From Arenicellales bacterium (GTDB taxonomy: Bacteria; Pseudomonadota; Gammaproteobacteria; Arenicellales; Poriferihabitantaceae), in NCBI GenBank assembly GCA_028285795.1, contig JAPYNL010000053.1, forward strand, positions 1 through 44,560: 44,560 bases of DNA. The letters are read 5' to 3'. The position numbers were made by a program, and so were the translations under genes. Below are positions 2 through 16,444 of this stretch, in pieces (position 1 is the stretch's first letter; each line of letters begins with the position of its first letter). The notes below the pieces were generated by a model. That model searched no databases. It was not told where the DNA came from and worked only from the letters and a program-made list of their open reading frames with translations.

Positions 2-817
2 CCAACGCTTAGCCTTCTGGTGCGACAACTCGAAGAGGCAATTGGTACACCGCTGTTTTCGCGAAGCACCCGTCATGTTGCCTTAACCGGCATGGGCAGG
101 GAATTCCTGCCGAGAGCAGATCAGGCTGTCAATGCCGTCTACTCTGCCGTCAGCCACATGCAGGACTATGTTCACCTGAAAAAGGGCAAGGTCACAATAG
201 CCGCCTTTCCCTCTGTTGCGACAAGACTGCTGCCGGGCATTGTCTCCAAGTTCAAGCGGGCAAATCCGAATGTAACCGTGAGCATTCTCGACGGCATTGC
301 GGACTTCATCGTAGAGCGACTTCAATCAGGGGCTGCAGACTTTGCCATTGCCAGTGAGCTGAATGAAGAAGATCTTGAGTTCATCCCCATTTTCGAGGAT
401 GGCATCATCCTGCTGCTTGGCAAGGACCATGATCTCGCACACCGAAAGTCGGTGGCATGGCGAGAGTTTATCGGTGAACATGTGGTGACAGTGTCCATGG
501 AAACAGGCATCCGTCAAACCATTGATGAAGCCCTTGCCAAGGAAGGCCTGAAACTGAAAGCCATCATTGAACCGCAGATGATCCAGACAGTGATGGCCTT
601 ATGCGAAGCCGGAATCGGGCCCGGCATAGTCCTGTCTTCCTATCTGCAGGATGCGCCGCCCGGCCTTGTCGCCATCAAGGTTCGTGAACCGGTCATCCGG
701 CACCGGATCGGCATCATCAAGCGGACTTCCACGGTGCTGACACCTGCCGCTTCTGCCCTGTTTTCCCTGACCGCTGAACGATTGTCAGATACTGCAAGCA
801 ACCGCATCGCGGCATGA
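2..817 (+). CDS. LysR-family transcriptional regulator (5'-truncated by window edge)
   Basis: Frame is open from base 2 (PTLSLLVRQLEEAIGTPLFSRSTRHVALT, end of the LysR HTH), followed by a substrate-binding domain (GKVTIAAFPS...LLPGIVSKFKRANPNV). Confidence 0.93.
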   Translation, partial: PTLSLLVRQLEEAIGTPLFSRSTRHVALTGMGREFLPRADQAVNAVYSAVSHMQDYVHLKKGKVTIAAFPSVATRLLPGIVSKFKRANPNVTVSILDGIADFIVERLQSGAADFAIASELNEEDLEFIPIFEDGIILLLGKDHDLAHRKSVAWREFIGEHVVTVSMETGIRQTIDEALAKEGLKLKAIIEPQMIQTVMALCEAGIGPGIVLSSYLQDAPPGLVAIKVREPVIRHRIGIIKRTSTVLTPAASALFSLTAERLSDTASNRIAA

Positions 818-944
818 CCGGATAAAAACGGAACCCGCTGCTTCAGAGCAGGGATGGAGCATGTTTCATTGCCGACTTCGCATCATTCAGGTCATGCCAA
901 CCTCAACATTCGGTGAAAGAAGGTATTCGGCAATCGCCCTCTCC

Positions 945-1362
945 TTACCTCCCGTAGGCTTCAAATCCAGCATTACTGCACTTTGTTGCTATTGTTGTGA
1001 CATGCCCTGTTCCCCCTGTTCCCGTGCTTTCTGAACGTGCAGAGCGCGCATAACAAAAAAGAGCGTCTGATGGCAACTCTACCTTGATGACATCTGCCCC
1101 GACACCTCCGAAATAGCGGGCAGTAAAAAGGCCAAGCTCAATCGTTGTCAGTCCAATACCCTCAAATCCTTCAGCAAATAATACGCTTTCGATCTCCACT
1201 CGCGCCCGAGCACCTCATGGCACCTGGGTCGATAGACAACCGGAACACGGGGGCGTTTCCCGATTCAGCTCGTATGGGCAGCCTAGAACGAGCCATAGAA
1301 CCAGATTCTATAAAGAAGTCAAGATATGAAGCAGAAATCTCTTCGAGCGTGGCTGGAGTCAT
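945..1362 (-). pseudogene. Degraded CaiB/BaiF (family III CoA-transferase) fragment
   Basis: ORF 945-1199 carries TIELG...LFTARYFGGVGADVIKVE, the N-terminal CaiB motif. The upstream frame (1171-1362) has APVFRLSIDPGAMR, resembling the CaiB C-terminal PxRLSxTPG motif. Both pieces are short and out of frame with each other. Confidence 0.6.
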
Positions 1363-1408
1363 TTATGAGCCATTTTCACCACCATAAAATTTGACGGACC
1401 ACCTTCAG

Positions 1409-3343
1409 TTACGATTTTTGAAAATGTGGTGAAGGATATTGGTTTTCTGGTGTAAATTCAGTATCGTATTTTGGGTAATCGGAATCAGGATTGAAGCCAT
1501 TATTGAAAACACCGTTGGAATTCTTCAATATGTGAATTGTGGCATCAAGTGCCATCCTCAAGGCCGGTTCGGTCCACCCTCCCTCAACGCTATAATTCTC
1601 TCCTGCAAAATAAATGCGGGAATTCTTGCTATGCGTCTGGTTGTAGGCTAACAACGAATAATTCTGTGACCAATTTCTCTGACGATACAACTTGGCACAC
1701 CCGTGATAATAATGTTGAGTTGACCAGTGAATGATTGTTGGACCGCTGTCCAAGTCGACGTATTGACTGATTGACTCTCCAACAGTGGAATTGCAGACTT
1801 CATCTAGCTTCTCAATCATGAATGGGCCAAGAAAGTCCCCATCAAAAGGCAATAACTTGGTAGCGTCGTCTTCCCATGTGTAACTCACCAGCAATACGCC
1901 ATGTTCACCTGTTTCGTCTGACCACTTAACACCATATGCATCCTGTACATACTCGTCGGTGATGATGATCTGCGGAATTTTTGATACACCGTTTTCCCAG
2001 TAAGTCTCTTTCAACTTATAGAACACTTTGCAACTTGTAATAATGTGCTGGGAGTTGCGGGCAGATAATACCGACGAAGGCATTTGGGATTGATCAAATC
2101 CAGTCAGCTTGACATTCAACTCCGAAGCCCAAAGCGTTGGTGTAATCACTACATAATCAACTTCGTATGATTTATCGACTCCAACTTCGTTAACTTTCAT
2201 CTGGATCTTTCCGGTTGAAGAATTTTTCTGCAATTCTTCAACCAGTGTTTCAACCAGTATTCTTACTTTTGGATTGGATTGTTTGGATTTATCATAGAGA
2301 GATAAATCAGATGCGGGTGGGGGCGCATAGAACAACCACTCATCCAGAGACTGAATACCTTTGTAAAGTGGGGGCTCAAGCTTATTCCCATTGCTATCCG
2401 TAACATCAGCATTGTAATATGGCAAGCCAGATTTGTCGGTAATGCCAACTACCGTCTGCAGATTACTGTTGAAGCCAAACATTACGCACCTGATGAACCA
2501 CATCGAACTCGCCTCATAAAACGCTCCCCAACTTCCATCTCCAGACCCAATTAGCGCAAAGATTTCCGCTTGGTCATCATCCATTCCAAATCCGCCAAAC
2601 CAACCATCATTTTGATAATCGGTAATGGCAGGGGTATAAACCAGATCATTTACATTCATCTGTTCATAGTTATTCGACACATCTCTCCAGAAGTCCTGCC
2701 ATCCAGTCCCATCATATAATTCACCAGCTGCCTTGGTGAAGATGGTGATAAAAGCAGATACCTTTTCATAAACCTCTTTGAGTTTTTCATTATCTGGAGG
2801 AGATGGATTCGATGGGTCATAAGGCCAATCAATTAATGTCGGTTTCGAGTATTCGTTATCGGGTCCGTAACCTTTGTTGATGTAGATTCCAGTATTGCCC
2901 GGTGCCGCACCAGGATTGGGAAAATTCTTCAGGGTACAGCCGCTTTCGACCTTGATGTAATACTCGGATATGCAGTTTTGATCACCGGGTTTGGAGAAAA
3001 ATGGAAACCGCATTGCCCCCATTTCCATGTCGGTTACACCATCGGTGTGCACGGTGTAATGTCTGCCACAAATTCGGCCGCTAGCTTCACATAGTATGAT
3101 TTTGTATCCGCAGCGAGAGAGTTCTCTTGCCGCCGCAATCCCCGCAACACCGGCACCCACTATACCGATAGTTGGTGGATTGGTCGGATTGGGTGCGCTC
3201 CCGATGGCGTTCTTGTTTTCTCTTGCAAGGGATAATAGCTGGAAGTAATTGAAACGAAAATCAGGTGGGCTGGGGTATGCAGGAAGCCATTCATTAGCAG
3301 GCTTTCTTCCGCATTGTATTGGTATATTGAATAAAGCTCTCAT
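1409..3343 (-). CDS. Flavin monoamine-oxidase-family protein, similar to amino-acid (Trp/Lys/Phe) 2-monooxygenases
   Basis: FAD-binding IGIVGAGVAG...EASGRICGR, EMGAMRFP, LLVSYTWEDDA, and C-terminal IYFAGENYSVEGGWTEPAL; 644 aa; visibly AT-richer than its flanks. Confidence 0.85.
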   Translation of the reverse strand: MRALFNIPIQCGRKPANEWLPAYPSPPDFRFNYFQLLSLARENKNAIGSAPNPTNPPTIGIVGAGVAGIAAARELSRCGYKIILCEASGRICGRHYTVHTDGVTDMEMGAMRFPFFSKPGDQNCISEYYIKVESGCTLKNFPNPGAAPGNTGIYINKGYGPDNEYSKPTLIDWPYDPSNPSPPDNEKLKEVYEKVSAFITIFTKAAGELYDGTGWQDFWRDVSNNYEQMNVNDLVYTPAITDYQNDGWFGGFGMDDDQAEIFALIGSGDGSWGAFYEASSMWFIRCVMFGFNSNLQTVVGITDKSGLPYYNADVTDSNGNKLEPPLYKGIQSLDEWLFYAPPPASDLSLYDKSKQSNPKVRILVETLVEELQKNSSTGKIQMKVNEVGVDKSYEVDYVVITPTLWASELNVKLTGFDQSQMPSSVLSARNSQHIITSCKVFYKLKETYWENGVSKIPQIIITDEYVQDAYGVKWSDETGEHGVLLVSYTWEDDATKLLPFDGDFLGPFMIEKLDEVCNSTVGESISQYVDLDSGPTIIHWSTQHYYHGCAKLYRQRNWSQNYSLLAYNQTHSKNSRIYFAGENYSVEGGWTEPALRMALDATIHILKNSNGVFNNGFNPDSDYPKYDTEFTPENQYPSPHFQKS

Positions 3344-3537
3344 ATCGACAATCCGAATTTAGAAGGTTCAATAATTTCCTCTCTATGGAATTTTATTACC
3401 CCGTTAATTCAAGTCGGGGGTGCAACACTCCGAAGGAGTGGAATTGGGGTTACTTTTTAATACGATTCCCTTATAATTTTACTCAGAAAAATCATGACAA
3501 AAAGAATCCCTGCTTCCAAATGGCATTTTAGCATTCC

Positions 3538-5097
3538 ATGACTTGGTTTATTGTTTTTATCATTGCGATCGTAGTAACGATTATTGTTATTACTGTTTTC
3601 GGGCGCTTTTACCACAAGGGATCACGTGAAAAAGCATTGATAAGAACCGGAGCCGGTGGACAGAAAATCGTCATGGATGGCGGTTGTCTCGTGTTGCCGT
3701 TCCTGCATCAGGTCGAACTGGTAGATATGAGAACAGCCTATATGGAATTGCTGCTGGAGAAAAATGATTCCATTCTCACAGAGGATCGAATGCGCGTTGA
3801 CCTCAACGTCGCGTTTCATGTACGCGTCATTCCCAGCATTGAAGGCATTGCCACTGCATCCCAGACTGTCGGCGTCAGATCCTTGAACCCCGAGCGACTG
3901 ACCGACTTTCTTAAAGGTAGGTTCATCGATGCCCTGCAAAGCGTTGTAGCTCAGCATACTATGGATAATCTGCATGAAAACCGTGCTCAGTTTGTAGCAA
4001 AAACCACCGCAATATTGAAGCCAAGTCTCGAAGAAAACGGACTCAAGCTTGAGTCCGTGTCCCTGATGAGGCTGGACCAAACAGAGTTTTCCACACTGAA
4101 TGAAAACAACGCATTCAATGCGGTTGGCATGAGGAAGCTGGCAGAAATCGTGACCGCAAACCGACGCAAACGCAAGGAAGTAGAGTCGAATGCCGATCTG
4201 GCCATACGAAGAACCGAGCTTGAAAATACAAAGAGTCGCATGCTGATTGATTTGGAAAAGGAAAAGGCCGAATCCGAAAAAACCATGGAAGTAGAACAGT
4301 TAAAGTCAGAAATGACCCGCCGCTCTTCCCACGAACGAGAGCAGGCAGAAATCGCATCAGGCCAGGCAAAACTGAATCGGGAGCTTGAACTCAGACGTTC
4401 CGAAATCGATCGAGACCAGCAAGTGAGAAAAGCCGAGGTTGTGGCACTTCAATCTGTCGAAGATGCCAGAATTCAAAGCCAGATCGAACTGTCCCAGCGC
4501 AGGGTCGAGGAATCCCAGGCCAAGGCCGATGCTGAATCAAGTCGCAAGGCAATCGTCGAAGCAGAAGAAGAGGTCAATCTTTTGCAGGACCGTCTGACAG
4601 CACAAAGAACCGGGGAAATCGCCCAAATAACAGCAGAGCTGGAATCCACAACCGCTCTTCACAAGGCACAAAGCGCAGCGGAAATCTCACATATCAATTC
4701 TGAAAGCGAAAAGGCTTCGGCCGACCTTGTCCAGGAACAAATCAAAAATGAAATGTCGATCAAAGCACTTGGTAAGCTTGAAATGATCAATGCCGAAAAC
4801 GCCATGAATCCCACATTGGTAGAGATGAAACTCGAAGAGAAGAGGCTAAGCGTACTTCCGGACATGGCAGACAGGATGTCACGGCCCCTGGAAAAAATCG
4901 GAAATATTAATATTAACCATGTCGCAGGACTGGGATCCGGATCGAACAACGGCAATCAGTCTGCAAAAACCGGATCAATTGTCGACGAGGTCCTTGACCT
5001 TGCTTTTCGAATGCCTGCCGTCAAGAAGCTTGGTGAAGCGGTTGGTTCCGAGATTACGGGACCAAGGAAAAAAGACGAGCCCGACAGAGGGAAATAA
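3538..5097 (+). CDS. Flotillin/SPFH (band 7) family membrane protein, YqiK-like
   Basis: N-terminal TM helix, ALIRTGAGGQKIVMDGG, SPFH core (TEDRMRVD, NGLKLESVSL, LDQT, NNAFNAVG), long E/A/R-rich coiled coil, PLEKIGNINI tail. Confidence 0.9.
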   Translation: MTWFIVFIIAIVVTIIVITVFGRFYHKGSREKALIRTGAGGQKIVMDGGCLVLPFLHQVELVDMRTAYMELLLEKNDSILTEDRMRVDLNVAFHVRVIPSIEGIATASQTVGVRSLNPERLTDFLKGRFIDALQSVVAQHTMDNLHENRAQFVAKTTAILKPSLEENGLKLESVSLMRLDQTEFSTLNENNAFNAVGMRKLAEIVTANRRKRKEVESNADLAIRRTELENTKSRMLIDLEKEKAESEKTMEVEQLKSEMTRRSSHEREQAEIASGQAKLNRELELRRSEIDRDQQVRKAEVVALQSVEDARIQSQIELSQRRVEESQAKADAESSRKAIVEAEEEVNLLQDRLTAQRTGEIAQITAELESTTALHKAQSAAEISHINSESEKASADLVQEQIKNEMSIKALGKLEMINAENAMNPTLVEMKLEEKRLSVLPDMADRMSRPLEKIGNININHVAGLGSGSNNGNQSAKTGSIVDEVLDLAFRMPAVKKLGEAVGSEITGPRKKDEPDRGK

Positions 5098-5168
5098 TCA
5101 ACGAACATCCAGGATCAGTATCTGACGACACTGATTTGCAAATTAAAAATGAAGAGGTAATATAAATC

Positions 5169-6404
5169 ATGAATATCAAAAGACGACAATTCATCAAGGG
5201 TGCAGGCGCAGCAAGTGCGGCAATATTTGCGCCACAACTTTCGTTCTCCATGAGCGAGCCGATCAAGATGGGAGTTCTGCTTGACACTTCAGGCCCGTTC
5301 AGTGCCTACGGAACACCCATGGAAATGGCGACCAGCCTGGCCGTCAAGCAAATCAATGATGGAGGGGGATTGCTAGGCCGTGAAGTCGAGGTTGTCTTCC
5401 GCGACACCCAGTCGGACATGAATAACTATTCGACTTTCGCAAATCAACTGGTACGCGAGGGACTTGACGTATTTCATGGCGGCATCCTATCTGCATCCAG
5501 AGAGGCAATTCGACAAATTCTGCGTCAACGAGGCGTACCCTATTTCTATAACGTTCTGTATGAAGGTGGGGTATGTGATCGAAACACCTTTATTACCGGA
5601 ACTACTCCTGCACAGCAGGTTAATGCACTGATTCCATATGCAATGAACAAGTATGGTACAGCGAAAGCATATGTTCTTGCCGCCAACTACAACTACGGAC
5701 AGATAACCGCTGCATGGGTAAACGAGTATGCAAGAGCGAACGGTGCCAGTGAAGTCGAGGTCGAGTTTTTTGACCTGGCAGATGGTGAGTTCGGTCCTTC
5801 CGCGATCGCAAAAATTCAGGAAGCCGGCAGCGATTTGGTTGTATCAGTGCTTGTTGGTGCCGCTCACTTGAGCTTCTATGGGCATTGGGCAGAAACCGGC
5901 ATGAACCAAAATCCTAATGTCCACCTGATTTCGACCACATTCGGAGTCGGCAATGAGCACAAGGTTCTACCGGCAAATCAGAGCGATGGCATGCTAATCG
6001 CCAACAACTGGGCTCCCGAAAATCCGTCCGTTCCTGAAAACAAGGCGTTTCTTGCTGATTGGACTCGGGAATATGGCGACACCGAAGCAATTCACGAAAT
6101 TGCTGTTTCACAATATCAGGGCATCCACCTCTGGGCTGAAGCTGTTCGACAGGCTGGAGCGGTTGATCGGGATTCCATTACCAAGACTCTTGAAAATGGT
6201 CTTGCAATCAATGGGCCCGCGGGCGTGGTGAAAATGGATCCCCTGACCCACCATTGCTCTCTTGATATCCACATTATGGAGCTAAACAATCAGAAACTGG
6301 ATGTTGTTCAGAAATTCGAACAGCGTGAACCTCTTGACACCCGGCGTTTCTGCAACCTGTCCGAAAATCCGGATTCCAATCTCCAGTACGAAATAACCCT
6401 GTAG
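5169..6404 (+). CDS. Amide/urea-type ABC transporter substrate-binding protein (UrtA/AmiC/FmdD family) with Tat signal
   Basis: KRRQFIK twin-arginine signal; PIKMGVL, GGLLGREVE, GGILSASREAIR, YFYNVLYEGG, ANYNYG motifs; GAGG RBS upstream. Confidence 0.9.
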   Translation: MNIKRRQFIKGAGAASAAIFAPQLSFSMSEPIKMGVLLDTSGPFSAYGTPMEMATSLAVKQINDGGGLLGREVEVVFRDTQSDMNNYSTFANQLVREGLDVFHGGILSASREAIRQILRQRGVPYFYNVLYEGGVCDRNTFITGTTPAQQVNALIPYAMNKYGTAKAYVLAANYNYGQITAAWVNEYARANGASEVEVEFFDLADGEFGPSAIAKIQEAGSDLVVSVLVGAAHLSFYGHWAETGMNQNPNVHLISTTFGVGNEHKVLPANQSDGMLIANNWAPENPSVPENKAFLADWTREYGDTEAIHEIAVSQYQGIHLWAEAVRQAGAVDRDSITKTLENGLAINGPAGVVKMDPLTHHCSLDIHIMELNNQKLDVVQKFEQREPLDTRRFCNLSENPDSNLQYEITL

Positions 6405-6560
6405 ATAATCCCGGACAGGGTTGTTTCCGAGGTTGGTAACATTACTTGCCTCTCTTTGTGAGATGAGACATTGCTTCAAGTTTGCTGTTGGGACACAGCC
6501 TCAGCTCACTCTGTTTGCACCCTATCTCTTGAAATAAAGGAGCAGATGTACACTTTCTGA

Positions 6561-7436
6561 TTGCTTGAAGTGGATATCACAGTCATATTCATCCTGCAGA
6601 TACTGTATGCCACGACATTGCTGGCACTGATTTCTTTCGGACTCGCGTTGATATTCGGAATGATGCGTGTCATCAATCTGGCTCATGGAGAATTTCTGAC
6701 GCTAGGTGCCTACGCAACAATCCTTGCTACCAAAATGGGTGTCAACTTGTGGGTATCCATGCTTGTTGTTTCTCCGCTGGTGGTTGGCCTATGGAGCTTG
6801 ATTGTTGAACGTTTTCTCATTCGGTTTATGTATGGCAGACTGGTTTATACGATGCTCGCAACCTGGGGATTAAGCCTCGCCATGGCTGGAGCGATGACCA
6901 TGATTTTTGGGACCACAACCGAAGGTGTCTCGGCTCAGGCAGGATCTTTTTCGATCGGCACTTATCAGGCAAGTGTGTACAGTCTTTTTGTTATTGGAGT
7001 TACGATTGTTGTAGCGACCGGAATTGCCCTCGCCCTGTTTGGCTCAAATTACGGACGAGTCGCTCGTGCAGCAATGGAAAATCGAGAAATGGTCGAGGCT
7101 TTCGGATATCCAATTAACCAGGTGTACATGTGGACCTTTGTCGCCGGCGGCATGCTGGCCGGATTGGCCGGCGGTATCTTGGCGCCTACAACAGGAATCT
7201 CGCCCTACAGCGGAAGTACCTGGATAGCAGATGCCTTCATCACGGTTATTACCGGGGGAACCGGTTCGGTAATGGGCACACTGGCAAGTGCCGGCATTCT
7301 GGGCTCGGTATCTTCAATCACTTCATTCATTTTCAGTTCTGCATCCGGCGGTGTTGCCTTGCTGGTTGCCGCACTCGTGATTCTGCGTATTTTCCCAACT
7401 GGAATATCCAGCCTGTGGCAACAACGTAACCGATGA
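6561..7436 (+). CDS. ABC transporter permease (UrtB/LivH family)
   Basis: GLALIFGMMRVINLAHGEF motif; hydrophobic; TTG start is uncertain. Confidence 0.9.
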   Translation: MLEVDITVIFILQILYATTLLALISFGLALIFGMMRVINLAHGEFLTLGAYATILATKMGVNLWVSMLVVSPLVVGLWSLIVERFLIRFMYGRLVYTMLATWGLSLAMAGAMTMIFGTTTEGVSAQAGSFSIGTYQASVYSLFVIGVTIVVATGIALALFGSNYGRVARAAMENREMVEAFGYPINQVYMWTFVAGGMLAGLAGGILAPTTGISPYSGSTWIADAFITVITGGTGSVMGTLASAGILGSVSSITSFIFSSASGGVALLVAALVILRIFPTGISSLWQQRNR

Positions 7437-8470
7437 CTTTCGGTCAAAACAATTTCACCAGGAGCATGCTGGCCCCATTGCTGACGGCAATTCCCGTGAT
7501 TGTGATTGCACCGGCGATTCTGCAGCCATTTGCACTTGCACAGCTGTCGATTTTCGCTCTACTGGCTTTGAGTCTTGGCTTAATCTGGGGGTACGGTGGT
7601 ATTTTGTGTTTTGGGCAAGGCGCTTTTTTCGGCATCGGAGCCTATTCCTATGTGATTCTGGTAACTAATCTGTCACTGCCCTGGACTTCCCTGATACTGG
7701 CAATCTGCTGCACGATGATCGTTGCGGCATGTCTCGGCCTGGTCATGTTTTACGGAAGACTGGGGGATGTATATCTCGCAATTGTCACATTGGTCTTTAC
7801 CCTCATTCTGAATCGGTTCATGAATGCAACCGCCGGTCCTGAATATCAAATTGGATCTGCCAGACTTGGAGGATTCAATGGTATTCCAGGTTTCGAAGTG
7901 CTGAAACTGCCCTGGAGTGATTTACTGTTCATGCCTGATATACTGTTCTTCTACATTTGCTTTGGCATCCTCATCATGGCCTGGATTTTTTGCCGCTGGT
8001 TGTTGAGAACCCATTTCGGACGTGTGATGATCGCAATACGTGAAAATGAAAGAAAGGTCGAGTTTGCCGGTTATGACACTCGACTACACAAGACCATTTC
8101 CTTCGCTATTGGCGGCGGTCTCGCAGGAATGGCGGGCGTGTTGTATGCAAATTGGGCCGGTATTGTGACGCCAAATCTGTTCAGCCTGACCCAATCTGCA
8201 GAAATCATCATATGGACTATTGTGGGTGGGATCGGTACACTAATCGGCCCGATCATCGGTGCCATCTTGCTGGTATTTCTGAAACTGCTACTCGGATACC
8301 AGAGTGTTGTGGATAATTATTTCCTACTCGGCGTTCTCTTGATCCTTGTGGTAATTTGGTTTCCTAACGGCATTGCCGGTGCTGCCGCGCAATCAAGATT
8401 CATGAGTAGGACCGCGGTCAAAAAATGGAAGACCCATTCAAATCGAACCATGAACGCCAGGCGAAGTTGA
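7433..8470 (+). CDS. ABC transporter permease (UrtC/LivM family)
   Basis: LIWGYGGILCFGQGAFFG, GGFNGI, FGRVMIAIRENE, VGGIGTLIGPIIGA; ATGA overlap with the upstream gene. Confidence 0.9.
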   Translation: MTFGQNNFTRSMLAPLLTAIPVIVIAPAILQPFALAQLSIFALLALSLGLIWGYGGILCFGQGAFFGIGAYSYVILVTNLSLPWTSLILAICCTMIVAACLGLVMFYGRLGDVYLAIVTLVFTLILNRFMNATAGPEYQIGSARLGGFNGIPGFEVLKLPWSDLLFMPDILFFYICFGILIMAWIFCRWLLRTHFGRVMIAIRENERKVEFAGYDTRLHKTISFAIGGGLAGMAGVLYANWAGIVTPNLFSLTQSAEIIIWTIVGGIGTLIGPIIGAILLVFLKLLLGYQSVVDNYFLLGVLLILVVIWFPNGIAGAAAQSRFMSRTAVKKWKTHSNRTMNARRS

Positions 8471-8482
8471 CAGGTTATTCCA

Positions 8483-9208
8483 GTGTCAAATCTCGCCGTA
8501 CTTCAAGTTGAGGATCTGGTTGTCAAGTTTGGCGGCGTGGCTGCTGTTGACGGCGTCGACTTTATCCTCAACAGAAACGAGCTGCGCTGTTTGATTGGAC
8601 CCAACGGAGCTGGAAAAAGCACCTTGTTCAAGGCCATCGCCGGCCTGGTCCGTCCCATGTCCGGCAGAATCTGGGTCAAGGGTAATGAAATAACTCATTT
8701 GCCGCCGCATCTCGTATCACGACGGGGAATCAGCGTCAAAACGCAAGTACCAAGCCTGCTGGAAGGGCTGTCGGTTTATGAAAATCTCTGGATTGTTGCC
8801 AGACGAAAGTATCTCCGTCAAAGCTGCCGGAAAATTATCGAACCAATCATGGAAGATATCGGTATTGGAAAAGATTCTGAGACCATCGTTAACACCATGG
8901 CGCATGGCAGAAGACAGCTGGTTGAGTTTGCAACAGCCTTGATTGCAAAACCTTCCATCATGCTTCTTGATGAACCGGCAGCCGGTCTGTCGGAGGAAGA
9001 GGTTATAGATTTTGCAAAGCTATTGCGTACCCTACCCTCGCAGATGTCATTGCTGGTGGTTGAACACAACATGAAATTTGTACGCATGGTTGCCAAACAG
9101 GTCAGTGTCCTTCATAAAGGACGAATCCTGATCTCGGGAGATCCAGACTTTGTGTTCAATGATGCGAAAGTTCAGGAAGTGTATCTTGGCAAAGAGGCAA
9201 CCGCATGA
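8483..9208 (+). CDS. ABC transporter ATP-binding protein (UrtD/LivG family)
   Basis: Walker A GPNGAGKST, Walker B MLLDEPAAG, VVEHNM, VQEVYLG end. Confidence 0.92.
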   Translation: MSNLAVLQVEDLVVKFGGVAAVDGVDFILNRNELRCLIGPNGAGKSTLFKAIAGLVRPMSGRIWVKGNEITHLPPHLVSRRGISVKTQVPSLLEGLSVYENLWIVARRKYLRQSCRKIIEPIMEDIGIGKDSETIVNTMAHGRRQLVEFATALIAKPSIMLLDEPAAGLSEEEVIDFAKLLRTLPSQMSLLVVEHNMKFVRMVAKQVSVLHKGRILISGDPDFVFNDAKVQEVYLGKEATA

Positions 9209-11526
9209 AAGACGGTGCTCCACTCGACTTACTGAACGTTAGAAATCTGAGTGCGGGTTACTCTGGAATTTCAGTGCTCCGGGACGTCGACCTGCAGGTC
9301 AGTGAAGGTGAGTGTGTTGGCCTGTTCGGCCACAACGGCATGGGCAAGTCGACACTGCTCCGCACCCTGATTGGATTAATTCATCCACTCTCGGGGAGCA
9401 TCGAATTCGACGGTGAGGACATCACTCATCTGCCAACATGGAAACGTGCAAGGCTGGGAATCGGATATCTTCCTCAAGGACGGGGAATTTTTCCGAGTTT
9501 AAATGTCGCAGACAACGTTGGCATTGCATTTAACCCTGACACTCGGGACAAGGATGAATGGTCAGCCCTAGAAGGCGCAATTACGCGCTTTCCGATTCTG
9601 GAATCACTGATAAAGCAAGCAGGGGGTACCTTAAGCGGTGGAGAGCAACAAGTACTGGCGCTTGCTCGTGCTCTCACAGCAGATCCAGTCATGTTGCTGC
9701 TGGATGAGCCCACAGAAGGAATTCAACCTTCCATTGTCATGGAAATTGCCAGCGAGCTCTCCTCAATCGCAAGAAATTCCGGCTTAACCATCTTGATGGT
9801 AGAACAAAATATCGATTTCCTGAATGTGCTCGCGGACCGTGTCCTTCATATTGAAAACGGCCGGGTGACAGATCAGCAACGGTCCTCTTCGGGTATTGCC
9901 CAACCACCAAAACCGACTCCCCTGCAGTCCGATACTTCAATACCCACAACCAACCATGATCCCGATGTATCAATCGATGTCAAGGCCGCACCAATTCCAG
10001 AGAAACAAATGGCAGTAACAAGACCCACAATTGATCAAATGGAAAAGATTTCCTCGGACCTGCATTTTCATATCGACCGAAACGCCCTGTCTGAATATCT
10101 AGATCTGGCTCAATCCACGATTGACGCCTATGACGTTGTAAATGCGATGCCAGATGAATTACCCGTGGTGAAATACCCGAGAGCTGGTGGATATGTGCCA
10201 GCAGAATCCGAGAACCCGCTGAATGCCTGGTACGTGAAATGCGATATCCCAGGAGCCGCAGATGGGCCACTCAAAGGCAAGAATATTGTTTTGAAGGATA
10301 CGATATGTCTGTCCGGCGTTCGTATGATGAATGGTTCCTCAATTCTGGATGGATACGTACCAGATGTTGATGCATCAATTGTTACGCGCACTCTGGATGC
10401 TGGAGCAAGAATAATCGGAAAAGCGCATTGCGAGTATCTCTGTCTGTCCGGAGGTAGTCATACCAGTGCCGGTGGTCCAGTGAAGAACCCTTGGCGTACC
10501 ACTCATTCTTCTGGTGGTTCTTCATCAGGTTGTGGCGCTCTGGTCGGTTCAGGAGAGGTGTCCATGGCAATCGGCGGGGATCAGGGAGGCTCAATCAGGA
10601 TCCCATCTTCATGGTCGGGCTGCTATGGAATGAAACCGACCCATGGTCTGGTGCCATACACCGGTGTTATGGCGATTGAGACCACCATCGATCATGTCGG
10701 ACCCATGACCCGAACCGTATGTGACAACGCATTGTTACTCGAAGCTATCGCAGGTTATGATGACGGTCTCGACCCCCGTCAGTACAATACGAAAACCCAT
10801 GTCTACAGCAAGGAATTGCTACAGGGCATTGCTGGATTGAGGATTGGCGTAGTCGCTGAAGGATTTGGGTGGCCAAACAGTGAATCGGACGTTGACGAGG
10901 CTGTACGCTCAGCGATAAATTTACTGTGCTCAATGGGTGCAGCAATTGATGAAGTGTCGATTCCCATGCATCGACAAGGTGCCGCAATATGGACACCTAT
11001 CGCACTTGAGGGACTCACCGATTTAATGATGCATGGCAATGCCTTCGGAACGAATTACCGCGGATTGTATCTAACTGGCTTGATTGACCACTATGCCAAC
11101 TGGCGGAACCGGGCTGATGAATTGTCTGCGAGCCTCAAGATTTGCATGATGATTGGCGAGTATTTTATCAAGCATCATAGGGGCCGGTACTATGGGAAAT
11201 CACAAAATCTCTCGCGTCGACTGCGCCATGCCTATGACGATGCTTTTCAGCAATTTGATCTTTTGGTCATGCCAACGATCCAAATGAAGGCTACCCCCCT
11301 GCCGCCGCCCGATGCACCGCTATCGCTGTATATTCAGAGAGCATTTGAAATGATTGTCAATACCGCGCCGTTTAATTGCACAGGGCATCCTGCGATGAGT
11401 ATTCCATGTGCACTCCGGGACGGACTACCGGTCGGCATGATGCTGGTCGGCAAACATCTGGATGAGTCGACAATTTACCGGGCCGCATACGAATTCGAAC
11501 AGTCATCCAACTGGCAGGATCTTTGA
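9205..11526 (+). CDS. Fusion of ABC ATP-binding domain (UrtE/LivF) and amidase-signature amidase
   Basis: About aa 1-220: [33 protein letters not shown]-rich linker follows. The amidase starts at MAVTRP (ATG 10009) with [47 protein letters not shown]. There is no stop codon between the domains. Confidence 0.9.
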
Positions 11527-11533
11527 TTGCCCA

Positions 11534-13354
11534 ATGACCAAGCTCAGCGAACCAATTACTGATCTTTCCAAACCGCTGATTGACCATCTAGCCATTCCCG
11601 TAGGTTCGTCTTCTTCGTCGATGACCCATAGCCAAAAATCTATTCGCAAATTCGTGCAGGCCGGTATGTCCCATGTCAGTGGGGATACAACAACTCCCCT
11701 GCTCGAATTATCCATCCCGGAATTGGTCAACGAGACTGTTCGCAACCACTCCAAGCGAACGGCCGTGGTGTTTTGCGATCAGGACATCCGGAAAACCTGG
11801 CAGGAGTTTGCGACAGATATTGATCGACTTGCGGCAGGATTTCTGGCTCTGGGACTGAAGAAAGGTGATCGTCTGGGCATCTGGTCACCGAATCGCTATG
11901 AGTGGCTGCTAACTCAATTTGCCACTGCCCGTACAGGGGTGATTCTGGTCACCATCAACCCTGCCTACAGGATATCTGAACTAAAGCATGTACTGGAAAC
12001 CTCGGGATGCAAGGCCCTTGTGATGGCCCAGAAATTCAAGTCCAGTAATTATGTTGAAATGCTCCTGCAACTAAAAGTGAATGCATTCACATCCGGATCT
12101 TCCAAATCGAGTTTGTCGAATCTGGAACATGCGATCATCATCCAAAATCAGGATCAGAGTGAAAGACCGGTTGGAATGCATGCATTTTCCGAAATCATGG
12201 ATTTGTCCGGCCCCGCACATATTTTGCGTCTCGAAGAAATTAGTGCCCATCTCAACCCGGATGATGCAATCAATATCCAGTTTACCAGTGGGACAACCGG
12301 TTTGCCGAAAGGTGCCACTCTTTCCCATCGGAATATTCTTAACAACGGAAAGTTTGTCACGGATGCCCAAGGATTTATGGAAAATGACACGTTATGCATA
12401 CCTGTTCCCCTGTATCACTGTTTTGGAATGGTTATGGGAGCCCTTGGCTGTGCGACCAAAGGTGCGGCCATGGTATTTCCTTCGGAAAGCTTCGTAGCAA
12501 AAGATACTGTCCGTGCGATAGCTAGAGAGGGTTGCACGGCATTGTATGGTGTACCCACCATGTTCAATGCAATACTGAATCTGGAAGACTTTGATTCGTA
12601 TGACTTGACCTCTCTGAGAACCGGGGTTATGGCAGGTGCACCCTGTCCGATTGAAACCATGAAACGGGTTGTCGATGATATGCACATGACAGAGGTTACA
12701 ATTGCCTATGGCATGACTGAAACAAGCCCGGTTTCTTTTCAAAGCAATCTGGATGACCCTATTGAAATGCGGGTATCGAAAGTCGGCCGGGTCCATCCGC
12801 ATGTGGAATGTCGCGTTATTGATGGCGAGGGCAATACGGTACCAGTGGGGCAACAGGGTGAGTTATGCACTCGCGGCTATTCGGTCATGAAGGGATACTG
12901 GAACGATCCCACACAAACCAGGGCTTCAATCGACACTGATGGCTGGATGCATTCGGGTGATTTGGCCATTATTGATAATATGGGGTATTGCAACATTGTT
13001 GGTCGCGTCAAGGATATGATTATTCGTGGTGGAGAAAATATCTATCCAAAGGAAATCGAGGAATATCTCCACCAGCATCCGGGAATTCAGGATGTCCAGG
13101 TGTTCGGTGTCCCGGACCACCATCTGGGTGAAGAAGTATGTGCGTGGGTAGTTCCGGTAGATTCTCAAGGCTTGAGCGAACAGGATATCATTGCTTTCTG
13201 CAAGGGGCAAATTGCCCATTACAAGGTACCTCGTTATGTACGAATTCGCAATGACTTGCCAATGACGGTTACCGGAAAGGCACAAAAGTACAAAATGAGG
13301 GAGGCTATGCTCAAGGAATTGAAATTGGAAAACCATATTGGGCCCGAGGCATAA
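11534..13354 (+). CDS. AMP-binding acyl-CoA synthetase (ACSF2/FadD-like)
   Basis: [57 protein letters not shown]. Start placed at the ATG just after the amidase stop; the ORF track starts at 11462. Confidence 0.92.
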
Positions 13355-13369
13355 TATCCGCTGCAGTGG

Positions 13370-13397
13370 CTTGACCGCTGTTAAGCTTGGGTCAAGT
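13370..13397 (+). terminator. Possible stem-loop after the acyl-CoA synthetase
   Basis: Inverted repeat cttgacc...ggtcaag just after the stop at 13354; no U-tract. Confidence 0.3.
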
Positions 13398-13407
13398 AAT
13401 GCCATTG

Positions 13408-13624
13408 ATGCGAAGCCGGGGTCGGGCTAGGAATAGTCATGTCTTCCTGTTTGTGGGGCGTGCCATCTGATCTTGCTAGCATTAAGGTGCGTGAGTCGAT
13501 CATTCGGCACCGGATCGGTGTCATCAAGCGTGCTTCCACAATGTTGACACCTGCTGCTTCTGCCCTGTTTTCACTGGCTGTTGAACGACTGTCAAACAAT
13601 GCAAGCAACCGCGTTATTGGATGA
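13408..13624 (+). pseudogene. Decayed duplicate of the 3' end of the LysR gene at 601-817
   Basis: Ungapped alignment of 601-817 with 13408-13624 gives 50 mismatches in 217 nt by hand and the same stop position. Protein: IKVRESIIRHRIGVIKRASTMLTPAASALFSL versus IKVREPVIRHRIGIIKRTSTVLTPAASALFSL. Confidence 0.88.
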
Positions 13625-13653
13625 CTTGACCGGCCGAATCTCCTGCTTCAGGA

Positions 13654-14628
13654 CTAGGCAGCCGAAGATTTATCGCCGATTGCTCTTGCGCCAGTCCCGT
13701 CAGCAGCACCATTCAGGGATTTCAGGTATCCGGCAATCGCTCTCTCGGGATTCCGGTTCTCGGCATTGACCCACGCTACACCGGATTGATTGCGCAACCA
13801 TGTCAACTGCCGCTTTGCAAGCTGCCGGGTCGCCGCCATGCCCTTTTCGATCATTTCGGCATTGGTTGACCTGCCATTAAGATAGTCAATCACCTGACGA
13901 TATCCGACACTGCGCATGGAAGGCGGGATTTCAGGGGTATCAAGTGTTTTGGTCAGAGTTTCAACTTCACGCACCAGCCCTTTCTCGATCATCTCCAGAA
14001 AGCGCTCCTTGATCCGCTCATGCAGAATTGGGCGAGGACGAAACAGGGCGATTTTTTGATATTGAATTTGCATGCCCTGGGGACGGGATTCTGCCATCAG
14101 CGATGAAGGAGACCGGCCGCTAATCATGAATATCTCCAGTGCTCTCTTGAGCCGCTGGGCATCATGGATCCTGATTTTCTCCGCACTCACTGGATCAGCC
14201 TCTGCAAGCTGTTGGTGCAGGTATTCCAGACCCCTTTCCCTCCCGATCCGCTCAATTTCGGACCGTACCGCTGGATCCGCACCGGGCAGTCTTGATATCC
14301 CGTTTTCCAATACCGAAAAATAGAACATGGTGCCGCCCACCAGAAGCGGTGTTCTGCCTCTGGCCAGGACCGATCCAATGAGCGACAGGGCATCGTCCCT
14401 GAACTCGGCGGCCGAATAGCTCTCGGTAATGTCGCGAATATCGATCAGGTGATGGGGAACGCGTTGCCGGAACTCCCGGTCCGGCTTTGCCGTGCCGATG
14501 TTCATGCCCCTATAGACCTGGCCGGAATCCACACTGATCAACTCCGCATCCAGATGCTTGCAGAGCTGACCGGCGACCGATGACTTGCCGACTGCTGTCG
14601 GACCCATCAGAAATACCGCAATGGGCAT
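13654..14628 (-). CDS. miaA: tRNA (adenosine(37)-N6)-dimethylallyltransferase
   Basis: MGPTAVGKS, ISVDSGQVYRGMNIGTAKP, LVGGTMFY, ATRQLAKRQLTW; directly downstream of mutL. Confidence 0.97.
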   Translation of the reverse strand: MPIAVFLMGPTAVGKSSVAGQLCKHLDAELISVDSGQVYRGMNIGTAKPDREFRQRVPHHLIDIRDITESYSAAEFRDDALSLIGSVLARGRTPLLVGGTMFYFSVLENGISRLPGADPAVRSEIERIGRERGLEYLHQQLAEADPVSAEKIRIHDAQRLKRALEIFMISGRSPSSLMAESRPQGMQIQYQKIALFRPRPILHERIKERFLEMIEKGLVREVETLTKTLDTPEIPPSMRSVGYRQVIDYLNGRSTNAEMIEKGMAATRQLAKRQLTWLRNQSGVAWVNAENRNPERAIAGYLKSLNGAADGTGARAIGDKSSAA

Positions 14629-14635
14629 GGAAAGC

Positions 14636-16444
14636 CTACCTGCCACGCATGAACCACTTATCAAGATCGGCCATTGTAATACTCATCCAGGTTGGGCGGC
14701 CATGGTTGCACTGCCCTGAGCGTTCAACTGACTCAATCTGTCGCAATAATGCATCCATTTCAGGAATTTCCAGTTTTCTATTTGCGCGAATTGCGCCGTG
14801 GCAGGCAATGGAAGAAAGAACTTCGTTAATTTCATTTCGCGGGCGATCGCTACTCCCATGCTCCAGAAGGTCGGATGCGGTATCCCGAATCACGGCTTCG
14901 ATGTCACTGTTCTTCAGCAATTCCGGGACCGTGCGGATTACCACCTGATCCTGGGCAAACACTTCCAGTTCAAATCCAAGCCTGCCCAATTCATCTATAT
15001 GGGATTCCAGACAGCGAACCTCCGAGAAGGACATGGCAATCCTGATCGGAACCAGCAGGGGTTGGGCCGGCATCGAATCCCGGGCATCCAGTTGCTGCTT
15101 GAGTGCTTCATAGGTTATTCGCTCGTGTGCAGCATGCATATCCACCATAATCAATCCATCCCTGTTTTCAGCAAGGATGTAGACCCCCTTGATTTGAGCA
15201 ATCGCATATCCGAGAGGAGGCATATCCACAGCCTCATCCTCCCTGTCCCTTGACCTGGACTGATTCAAGCCCATATCCCAGATGCTGGCGGTCAAGCCAC
15301 CCGCAGAAGTCTGATCCGGATCTGGCATTCTGATGCGTTGCTGAGTTCCGCCTGAAATGCCCGACGGGCGGGCTTGAGCTCTGCCAGCGGTGTCCGGCAA
15401 AGGCAGCGCGACCTCTCCTTCCTCTGGCGAAATCCCTGCAACGGCCCGGTTCAGGATTCTGAAAATAAAGTCATAAACAGCTCGGCTTTCCCGGAACCGG
15501 ACTTCATTCTTGGACGGATGGACATTCACGTCGACCAGTTTTGAATCCAGTTTCAGAAACAGTACAAATGCGGGATGTCGCCCGTGATAGAGCACGTCGC
15601 TGTAGGCCCTTTTAACCGCATGCGAGACCAGGTGATCGATAACCGGTCTCCCATTGACAAAAAAATACTGCAAGTCTCTCTGGCTCCTTGAGAATGTCGG
15701 CAGGCCAATCCAGCCCTCAAGTGCATAGGCATCGACCTCATGATCGATATAGATGGATTGAGTGGTAAACGGATGACCGCAAATCTTGATCAGGCGCTGG
15801 GTCATGATTGCCACATTCTGGGCTCTGGAAACCTGAAATACGGTTTTTCCATCACGCATGAAATCGATAGCCACGCCTGGATTGCCCAGTGCGATCCTGC
15901 GGACTATGGCATCGCAATGATTGAACTCAGTCTGTTCAGTACGCAGGAATTTCCGTCGAGCCGGAGTATTGAAGAATAAATCCTCGACCTCAACAGTTGT
16001 ACCAATCGCATGGGCCATGGGCCTGATCTCACCAGATGGCGTACCGCCATGAGAACGATATTCATGTCCCAAATCCTCTTGTACCACCCTGGTTTTCAGG
16101 CTGAGCCTTGATACGGCAGCAATACTCGGCAAAGCCTCGCCCCTGAAGCCCATCGTGGTCAGGCTGAACAGATCGTCTGCGGAATTGAGTTTGCTGGTCG
16201 CATGCCGCGAAACAGCCAGCGGAATCTGGCTGAGTGGAATGCCGCATCCGTTATCGCTGACGGAAACGCGCTTTATTCCGCCACGATCAATGTGGACACG
16301 AATTTCAGTGGCACCGGCATCCAGGCTGTTTTCGAGCAATTCCTTGAGTAGTGATGAGGGACGTTCGACCACTTCCCCCGCCGCGATCTGATTGACCAGA
16401 TTGTCATCGAGAATTCGGATTTCGGCAGGAGGTTGCTTTTGCAT
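14636..16444 (-). CDS. mutL: DNA mismatch repair protein MutL
   Basis: NQIAAGEVVERP, KELLENSLDAGA, GFRGEAL, DVNVHPSK, endonuclease motif DMHAAHERITYE, CNHGRPT. Confidence 0.98.
   Translation of the reverse strand: MQKQPPAEIRILDDNLVNQIAAGEVVERPSSLLKELLENSLDAGATEIRVHIDRGGIKRVSVSDNGCGIPLSQIPLAVSRHATSKLNSADDLFSLTTMGFRGEALPSIAAVSRLSLKTRVVQEDLGHEYRSHGGTPSGEIRPMAHAIGTTVEVEDLFFNTPARRKFLRTEQTEFNHCDAIVRRIALGNPGVAIDFMRDGKTVFQVSRAQNVAIMTQRLIKICGHPFTTQSIYIDHEVDAYALEGWIGLPTFSRSQRDLQYFFVNGRPVIDHLVSHAVKRAYSDVLYHGRHPAFVLFLKLDSKLVDVNVHPSKNEVRFRESRAVYDFIFRILNRAVAGISPEEGEVALPLPDTAGRAQARPSGISGGTQQRIRMPDPDQTSAGGLTASIWDMGLNQSRSRDREDEAVDMPPLGYAIAQIKGVYILAENRDGLIMVDMHAAHERITYEALKQQLDARDSMPAQPLLVPIRIAMSFSEVRCLESHIDELGRLGFELEVFAQDQVVIRTVPELLKNSDIEAVIRDTASDLLEHGSSDRPRNEINEVLSSIACHGAIRANRKLEIPEMDALLRQIESVERSGQCNHGRPTWMSITMADLDKWFMRGR

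Follow-up and report, generated by a model that had tools for sequence, protein, structure and literature searches.

The first part of contig JAPYNL010000053.1 raises the question of why a gene for a flavin amine-oxidase-fold protein should lie divergent from an operon that appears to import amides, hydrolyze them, and activate the resulting acids with coenzyme A (CoA). The window analyzed here is positions 1-44,560 of this contig, from the genome labeled G000; related genomes carry G-numbers and individual loci L-numbers. A sequence-only reading of positions 1409-13354 had proposed an undescribed module of the IaaM/IaaH kind leading from amino acid to amide, acid, and acyl-CoA, with a LysR gene and a CoA-transferase remnant alongside. 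Our analysis supports that proposal in part: the chemistry of the operon is supported by homology and the link between oxidase and operon by its recurrence in other genomes, whereas an identification with IaaM and IaaH and the membership of the LysR and CoA-transferase genes are not retained. What emerges is a widespread operon that is usually found without the oxidase, and an oxidase, probably amide-forming, that has joined it repeatedly.

The operon opens on the (+) strand with the gene for a membrane-anchored SPFH/flotillin protein of 519 residues (3538-5097), in which the SPFH (Band 7; PF01145, 52.5 bits) and flotillin C-terminal (PF15975, 66 bits) domains both score over their cut-offs and the N terminus is hydrophobic. 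On the same strand follow a periplasmic substrate-binding protein of the urea/amide-type HAAT branch (5169-6404; Peripla_BP_6, E 1.4e-73, and Peripla_BP_5), UrtB-like and UrtC-like ATP-binding cassette (ABC) permeases (6561-7436 and 7433-8470, both PF02653, BPD_transp_2), a UrtD-like ABC ATPase (8483-9208), a UrtE-like ABC ATPase (9205-11526), and an AMP-binding acyl-CoA ligase of the ANL superfamily. The open reading frame of the ligase opens at 11462 and ends at 13354, its likely start being the ATG at 11534, 8 bases past the amidase stop; it carries PF00501 (E 7.2e-97) and PF13193, and its 791.1 bits against the NCBIfam model PRK12583 (NF009233) fall slightly under the cut-off of 832. Pfam and NCBIfam profile matches confirm every gene of the sequence-only reading in its place. 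The amidase, however, lacks a separate gene and makes up the C-terminal 505 residues of the second ATPase protein, in a single frame of 773 residues that comprises the ATPase (residues 1-~225), a variable linker rich in Pro, Ser, and Thr (~226-268), and the amidase (269-773).

This ATPase::amidase fusion is uninterrupted by stop codons in G002, G003, G035, and G023, and it is invariant, as are the residues K364, S439, and S463, when five fused proteins of four lineages are aligned. PF00005 and PF01425 likewise occur together in all 120 database relatives listed for the fused protein, whose source name is plain "amidase," and one fused homologue bears the UniRef label "indoleacetamide hydrolase." The amidase portion passes the NCBIfam model PRK07235 (NF005565), scoring 772.8 bits where 545 is the cut-off. 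Its match to the Rhodococcus sp. N-771 amidase (RhAmidase; 3a1k) has an E of 1.6e-137 over chain residues 2-499, and the likeness of these close relatives extends to the N-terminal helical domain of RhAmidase (PMC11732141). A Lys/cis-Ser/Ser triad is present with the GGSSSG signature, K364, S439, and S463 corresponding to the Lys96, Ser171, and Ser195 given there as catalytic (PMC11732141). The predicted import, amide hydrolysis, and CoA activation are in this way supported by homology, most directly by the PRK07235 and 3a1k matches and by the retained catalytic Lys-Ser-Ser. An identity with IaaH does not stand, as the amidase scores 202.8 bits against the IaaH equivalog NF005688, the cut-off of which is 532.

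Amidases of the N-771 type are encoded in Rhodococcus within nitrile-hydratase clusters, and the kinship of the island amidase to them brings in an alternative source of substrate: amides might arise from nitriles by a nitrile hydratase encoded elsewhere in the genome, with the island amidase and ligase finishing the route. G000 does have nitrile hydratase beta and alpha genes, on contig C219 (L197 8753-10026, (-)), with no amidase beside them; their neighbours are genes for a NERD/UvrD-like helicase, a Fic protein, and a TauD dioxygenase. The alpha gene, however, sits on a different contig from the island and occurs in 27 of 41 relatives, including G001, G004, G005, and G006, which lack the island, a distribution that does not track the island and led us to reject nitrile hydratase as a marker of it. 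Profile scans found neither nitrile hydratase nor aldoxime dehydratase in the island, nor nitrile hydratase anywhere in the window, and a supply from nitriles would explain neither the importer nor the oxidase. We therefore consider this origin of the amide improbable.

The importer is present as the sequence-only reading had it, while its designation as amide-type is a matter of interpretation, the nearest curated models being the Urt urea components, all of which score under cut-off: 301.5 bits against 494.8 for the binding protein (TIGR03669), 212.6 against 374.25 and 240.9 against 575.55 for the permeases (TIGR03622 and TIGR03727), 221.6 against 304.1 for the UrtD-like ATPase (TIGR03411), and 240.9 against 285.8 for the UrtE-like one. 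Judged by these scores, the components are relatives, not orthologues, of UrtABCDE. Uptake of urea and amides by ABC transporters is established, and the island shares with UrtABCDE an arrangement in five components, a binding protein with paired permeases and paired ATPases, and has urea-binding proteins and AmiC (1pea), the amide sensor of Pseudomonas aeruginosa, among the PDB matches of its binding protein, on which a Tat signal match is barely over cut-off. It differs in that the second ATPase carries an amidase, flotillin leads the operon, and there is no urease. Because an amidase is tethered to the transporter and urease is lacking, we infer that the ligand is most economically taken to be an amide other than urea.

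The order flotillin, binding protein, permease, permease, UrtD, UrtE::amidase, ligase is the same in G002, G003, G035 (another family), G023 (another genus), L040, L062, and L108-L118, and the operon recurs across Alpha- and Gammaproteobacteria. Flotillin is its first gene in G002, G003, G035, G023, L040, L062, and L063. Of the 80 loci that a scan of species genomes with this fusion retrieved, 20 have an orthologous amidase (>40% identity); at the identity filter used, flotillin was found at 4 and the ligase at 7 of these 20, and in 4 the amidase is unfused. Because the operon is mostly found without the oxidase, it can be regarded, as far as homology indicates its functions, as sufficient in itself for importing an amide, hydrolyzing it, and activating the acid with CoA. 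Some alphaproteobacterial operons have a second, unfused amidase paralogue (48-50% identity) in place of the CoA ligase (L107 5585-7105, L119 13011-14525, L127 20746-22263).

Outside the genus MarR and another Peripla_BP_6 protein are encoded ahead of the operon, in G035 and G023 among others; loci that show this are L024 2890-4658, L025 17244-18961, L063 7910-9633, and L057 17308-18958, and the second binding protein may be an AmiC-like sensor. The Poriferihabitans island has no MarR, no second binding protein, and no regulator of its own; none is encoded in the 194-bp region of 37% guanine-plus-cytosine (GC) content that separates the divergent oxidase and flotillin genes (3344-3537). Promoter and terminator scans of 800-13800 gave 18 and 15 sites versus 17.2 and 12.3 in shuffled sequence, no excess over chance.

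The oxidase gene (1409-3343, (-)) encodes 644 residues, of which 66-599 match PF01593 (E 9.9e-23); PF13450 matches as well, and no NCBIfam model does so over the full length. Two conserved peptide patterns, run over 185,579 species genomes, retrieved 324 stretches, 236 of them confirmed relatives; the family is rare and unnamed. Across 19 members the FAD-binding Rossmann positions G63, G65, G68, and E86 are invariant, and so are R112, K439, Y488, and W590, which align in sequence with R98, K365, Y413, and W519 of the tryptophan 2-monooxygenase 4iv9; K439, like its counterpart K365, is the active-site lysine. The arginine lies in a GAMR(F)P motif and the tyrosine in SYTWEDD, features that the oxidase shares with IaaM along with the flavin amine-oxidase fold. 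This Arg and Tyr hold the alpha-carboxylate of the substrate and the Trp forms an aromatic cage (PMC5832979).

Among solved structures 4iv9 is the best match by sequence, profile, and fold. A sequence search ranked it (1.5e-29) ahead of an ancestral vertebrate L-amino-acid oxidase (1.6e-20) and the L-lysine oxidase/monooxygenase 3we0 (1.4e-18), and a profile of the 19 members kept that order (7.3e-47, 5.2e-38, and 1.8e-34), with snake oxidases at ~1e-23. An AlphaFold2 model of the oxidase (predicted TM-score 0.83; mean predicted local distance difference test score, pLDDT, 76.3) is poor at the active-site loops, where pLDDT falls below 50 (residues 93-114, 267-274, and 424-435). Foldseek with this model placed 4iv9 and 3we0/5yb6/5yb7 at the top (E 3e-23 to 2e-21, TM-score ~0.7 on the target), the DavB-type enzymes being second best at 4.4e-23, followed by snake-venom L-amino-acid oxidases at ~1e-18. 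Identity in the fold alignments to the tryptophan and lysine enzymes is 17-21%, the higher value belonging to 4iv9 and the lower to the DavB type. Annotated iaaM genes of Ti and Pantoea plasmids reach 22-24% identity, covering 57% of the query at most (22.4-22.6% over 57% for Ti-plasmid iaaM), and in a tree that includes them they lie on a branch of 1.87 changes per column, the family forming a separate deep clade; DavB and the snake oxidases were compared through the PDB rankings by sequence, profile, and fold. An orthologue of IaaM the oxidase is not. It is instead a candidate alpha-amino-acid 2-monooxygenase, probably forming amides rather than deaminating its substrate.

The alignments also bear on the substrate. 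Like the DavB type (3we0, 5yb6), the oxidase keeps the alpha-carboxylate Arg and Tyr and has a Gly-rich "plug loop" ending in Trp, IGSGDGSW where the lysine enzyme has VGFGTGGW. In the pocket, W272 resembles the narrow lysine enzyme and G589 the wide Trp/Phe enzymes, at positions where the alignment is weak and the model of low confidence. W272 aligns in sequence with Phe244 of the tryptophan enzyme, which widens the pocket for Trp, and an invariant Phe275 stands, in a stretch of weak alignment, at the position of Asp238, which binds the epsilon-amino group of lysine in the DavB-type enzyme, both roles being those given in PMC5832979. Because Phe275 replaces Asp238 the substrate is probably not basic. 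Tryptophan, too, is an improbable substrate.

This bears in turn on the proposal that the island is an IaaM/IaaH-type module making or degrading the auxin precursor indole-3-acetamide. Fold and gene logic do resemble iaaM-iaaH of the Ti plasmid and of Pantoea, an oxidase gene adjoining that of an amidase-signature amidase in both, and the UniRef label on one fused homologue points the same way. The distance from iaaM, the failure of the amidase against the IaaH model, the W272 substitution, and a CoA ligase that would destroy an auxin signal together make such a role highly improbable. The island amidase is of the PRK07235 type, and importer, flotillin, CoA ligase, and ATPase fusion are all additions to the IaaM/IaaH plan.

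The linkage of the oxidase to the operon was surveyed at the best 80 loci of the oxidase family, with 10 kb on each side where available, many contigs of metagenome-assembled genomes (MAGs) having short flanks. Counts were made by tblastn, a longest-frame heuristic for open reading frames misfiring in high-GC DNA, and related genomes within them are not independent. Operon parts stand beside the oxidase at 11 of the 80 loci, 3 in the genus and 8 outside it, where chance would give ~0.5% per gene, or <0.5 of 80, even with one operon per 4-Mb genome. In L040 (a Rhodospirillaceae MAG) the oxidase lies ~180 bases past the ligase and in L062 (an Arenicellales MAG) ~220 bases upstream of flotillin, in each case on the same strand. 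In L042 (a Pseudomonadota MAG) a TonB-dependent receptor, an unfused amidase, the ligase, a DUF1501 protein, and the oxidase all occupy one strand. A search of this locus gave no genes for ABC permeases or ATPases, and a single Peripla_BP-like gene sits upstream on the opposite strand. Oxidase and operon diverge in L041 (Aquibium), L045 and L048 (Salinarimonas), and L063 (Mesorhizobium zhangyense), with MarR and a second binding protein between them (Pfam evidence for L063 only). The oxidase is ~6 kb from the operon in L057 (Aestuariivita), and in G044 the fused amidase is ~39 kb away from it.

Co-occurrence, the lack of which in other genomes would have counted against the sequence-only reading, thus extends to at least three clades of the oxidase and three gene orders. 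The tree (quick IQ-TREE, LG+G4, 53 family rows and two iaaM outgroups, omitting the partial L046, L060 and L084 with internal stops, and 25 further Pseudomonas-clade loci) has 12 operon-linked rows, which fall in an alphaproteobacterial clade (7 of its 10 rows), in the Poriferihabitans clade, and, far off, at L062. Operon linkage requires five changes of state, and confining it to a single clade costs 401 log-likelihood units (approximately unbiased test, p-AU 6e-127), a formal test weakened by the post hoc naming of the group. Because the oxidase is probably co-transcribed with its neighbours in L040, L042, and L062 and has joined the operon repeatedly and independently, a shared function is indicated. 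The co-occurrence is nevertheless one-sided: the oxidase is repeatedly drawn to the operon, whereas the operon is usually free of the oxidase, an asymmetry such as a peripheral enzyme that supplies a general module would show.

A pairing with an amide hydrolase is found again in a separate clade of the oxidase family, and there with a hydrolase of non-homologous type. At 35 loci in Pseudomonas and Xanthomonas (36-39% identity) the oxidase is followed by a CN_hydrolase, whose nearest models are nitrilase and N-carbamoylputrescine amidase, and then by a 400-residue protein that has no Pfam or NCBIfam match; a type II asparaginase comes next in 29 of the 35, and an AraC/FtrA-type regulator lies upstream. 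DavA belongs to the same CN_hydrolase superfamily and its gene is next to davB, an arrangement that the Pseudomonas clade resembles. Because the operon amidase, a non-homologous CN_hydrolase, and an asparaginase all recur beside the oxidase, and a second, unrelated amide-hydrolase partner is what would be expected of an amide-former, these neighbourhoods support an amide-forming role by analogy. The cluster is present in culturable strains of the Pseudomonas fluorescens/putida group (L088 8738-16503; L099 8744-15250) and appears uncharacterised.

These hydrolases also weigh on the possibility that the flavoenzyme is a deaminating L-amino-acid oxidase, which would release a 2-oxo acid, ammonia, and hydrogen peroxide. 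2-Oxo acids are decarboxylated by hydrogen peroxide to the acid one carbon shorter, and on this account either the oxidase and the operon would share only the scavenging of nitrogen or the acid so formed would feed the ligase, the linkage of which fits deaminating and amide-forming reactions alike. In sequence and fold the L-amino-acid oxidases, ancestral and snake-venom, come closely behind the best matches, and the same Arg, Tyr, and Lys serve both types of reaction (PMC5832979). Deamination gives no reason, however, for two unrelated amide-hydrolase families and an asparaginase to stand beside the oxidase, and the solved structures closest to it are those of the two 2-monooxygenases. We regard a deaminating oxidase as unlikely, although it is the foremost of the alternatives.

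The reading that we prefer has two routes, one from an imported amide and one from an amide made by the oxidase, entering the same pair of amidase and ligase, and we hold it tentatively, at a little short of an even chance. A small amide other than urea would be imported by the ABC transporter, with flotillin as a membrane scaffold, and the amidase, covalently tethered to the second ATPase, would work where the transporter faces the cell interior, splitting the amide into ammonia and a carboxylic acid. The acyl-CoA ligase would then activate the acid, both nitrogen and carbon being kept. The oxidase would be an optional feeder that oxidatively decarboxylates an alpha-amino acid within the cell to an amide of the class taken by the amidase, for a net intracellular route from amino acid through amide and acid to acyl-CoA.

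Several observations weigh against a feeder role. An amide made inside the cell would need no importer. No relative of the oxidase was found in the flanking DNA examined at any of the 20 operon loci with an orthologous amidase, nor, at E 1e-40 or better, in any of 10 whole operon genomes searched with a query that does find the orthologues in the genus; G035 and G023 have no match anywhere, making 0 of 12 operon genomes. The GC content of the oxidase (43.9%) departs from that of the operon (48-50%; flanks 52-55%), and because of this difference its co-transfer as a passenger is possible. To these must be added the near match of the ancestral L-amino-acid oxidase by profile, the low confidence of the model at the active-site loops, and the company that the oxidase keeps at other loci. 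Two GT4 glycosyltransferases (~580 and ~350 residues), its commonest neighbours among close relatives, follow the oxidase at 16 loci, among them those of the closest relatives outside the genus; this trio spans Acidobacteriota, Gemmatimonadota, and Alphaproteobacteria (L074 9989-14731; L032, L039, L040, L057, L063), and 3 of 5 glycosyltransferase-linked genomes searched are without an orthologous amidase. At 11 loci the neighbour is a sensor of 1600-2200 residues combining TIR or Ser/Thr kinase, AAA_16, GAF, histidine kinase, and receiver domains, with a receiver-GGDEF gene directly after it in 3 of the 11, which hints at a link to signalling or biofilm for part of the family. Neither context is explained by a simple catabolic feeder. 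Giant sensor kinases and a GGDEF regulator accompany another clade of the family; examples of the giant-sensor loci are L039 3810-9935, L053 12324-17732, and L067 16308-17258.

The same facts can be taken to mean that the oxidase has nothing to do with amide catabolism, serving instead a glycosylated product made with the GT4 enzymes or sensor-kinase signalling, and that it adjoins the operon through the gathering of accessory genes in islands. The trio itself, the difference in GC content, and the oxidase-free operon genomes all suit this view, as does the presence of the glycosyltransferase pair at 6 of the 8 operon-linked loci outside the genus (L040, L041, L045, L048, L057, and L063), in L040 with a ManC-type GDP-mannose pyrophosphorylase/isomerase after the pair. 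Against it stand Poriferihabitans, L062, and L042, where the oxidase occurs with the operon or with amidase and ligase and no glycosyltransferase is present, and the repeated independent joins with probable co-transcription in L040, L042, and L062. A search of G000 found no relative of the glycosyltransferase pair except a match of 54 residues. An unrelated role is in our estimate unlikely, a shade more so than deamination. A broader conjecture would make the family a new class of amino-acid 2-monooxygenase that produces small neutral amides with fates depending on lineage, namely GT4 glycosylation, with a GDP-mannose enzyme in L040, to an amide-type solute or signal, sensing through kinases and GGDEF proteins, or delivery to an importer-tethered amidase and CoA ligase, the island then being a full shunt from amino acid through amide to acyl-CoA in a flotillin microdomain; in this complete form we think it doubtful.

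Within Poriferihabitans, seven other genomes of the genus were compared. The whole block stands in the same order in G002 and G003, and a 6-kb contig of G007 (75% complete) contains the oxidase and flotillin genes; genome searches found neither the oxidase nor the fused amidase in G001, G004, G005, and G006. In G004 and G006, MutL-MiaA abuts LysR, with the CoA-transferase and HflX further along and no island between, while an intact CoA-transferase gene borders that of the oxidase in G003 and G007. The oxidase and operon are accordingly one indel block of 12 kb in the mutL-miaA / hflX neighbourhood, lying between the LysR or CoA-transferase gene and MiaA, and their carriage within the genus counts as a single event, not independent evidence of coupling. 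Compared with its orthologues in the genus the oxidase has a ratio of nonsynonymous to synonymous substitution of 0.05-0.09, like the amidase and the binding protein, the values being approximate with synonymous sites near saturation; it is under purifying selection.

The flanking genes can be assigned on the same comparison. The LysR gene (2-817, (+)), truncated by the window start, and the N-terminal remnant of a family III CoA-transferase (1029-1172, (-); tblastn 58% identity over 48 residues, E 5.5e-10) are indeed beside the island, as the sequence-only reading noted, and were tried as parts of the module and rejected, because synteny in the genus, from the islandless G004 and G006 to the intact CoA-transferase of G003 and G007, makes both of them backbone genes. 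The remnant (window 1172-1029) matches residues 6-53 of the intact 382-residue protein of G003, and the gene, with its Pfam match, is intact in G003, G007, G004, and G006. Beyond the ligase gene MiaA and MutL are encoded on the (-) strand, window 13654-16444 (also L191 and L192) belonging to the conserved mutL-miaA ... hflX neighbourhood at the island site. The miaA match of G006 is split, with one TGA inside its second piece, and may reflect a broken gene or an assembly error.

How much of this is new can be judged against known systems. The logic of amino acid to amide to acid is established for IaaM/IaaH and DavB/DavA, and the steps from amide through acid to acyl-CoA are known from the nitrile pathway, which weakens the proposal of an undescribed module. 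For Pseudomonas chlororaphis B23, Hashimoto in 2005 reportedly described such a pathway, with aldoxime dehydratase, nitrile hydratase, amidase, and acyl-CoA synthetase. Like that pathway, the island has the steps from amide to acyl-CoA encoded in a single cluster; it differs in having an importer, a flotillin, and the ATPase fusion. No description of the oxidase family or of its pairing with amidases was found in the full-text literature, nor of the flotillin-led operon or the fusion of ATPase and amidase, and nothing relevant emerged there on short-chain amide transporters or the Pseudomonas cluster; with subscription journals outside this coverage, these are weak negatives.

If the oxidase makes an amide, its family would be a third one of bacterial amino-acid 2-monooxygenases beside IaaM and DavB, widespread but rare, and culturable carriers such as Mesorhizobium zhangyense (CGMCC 1.15528) or Salinarimonas, together with a new substrate, would make it testable. 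The fusion of ATPase and amidase with a leading flotillin is abundant in Proteobacteria and would plainly exemplify the physical coupling of catabolism to an importer. Only four sequencing runs were listed as containing the stretch itself, all of sponge metagenome DNA from one study and none of RNA, and for sponge symbionts the island would offer a route by which to harvest nitrogen and carbon from host- or community-derived amides.

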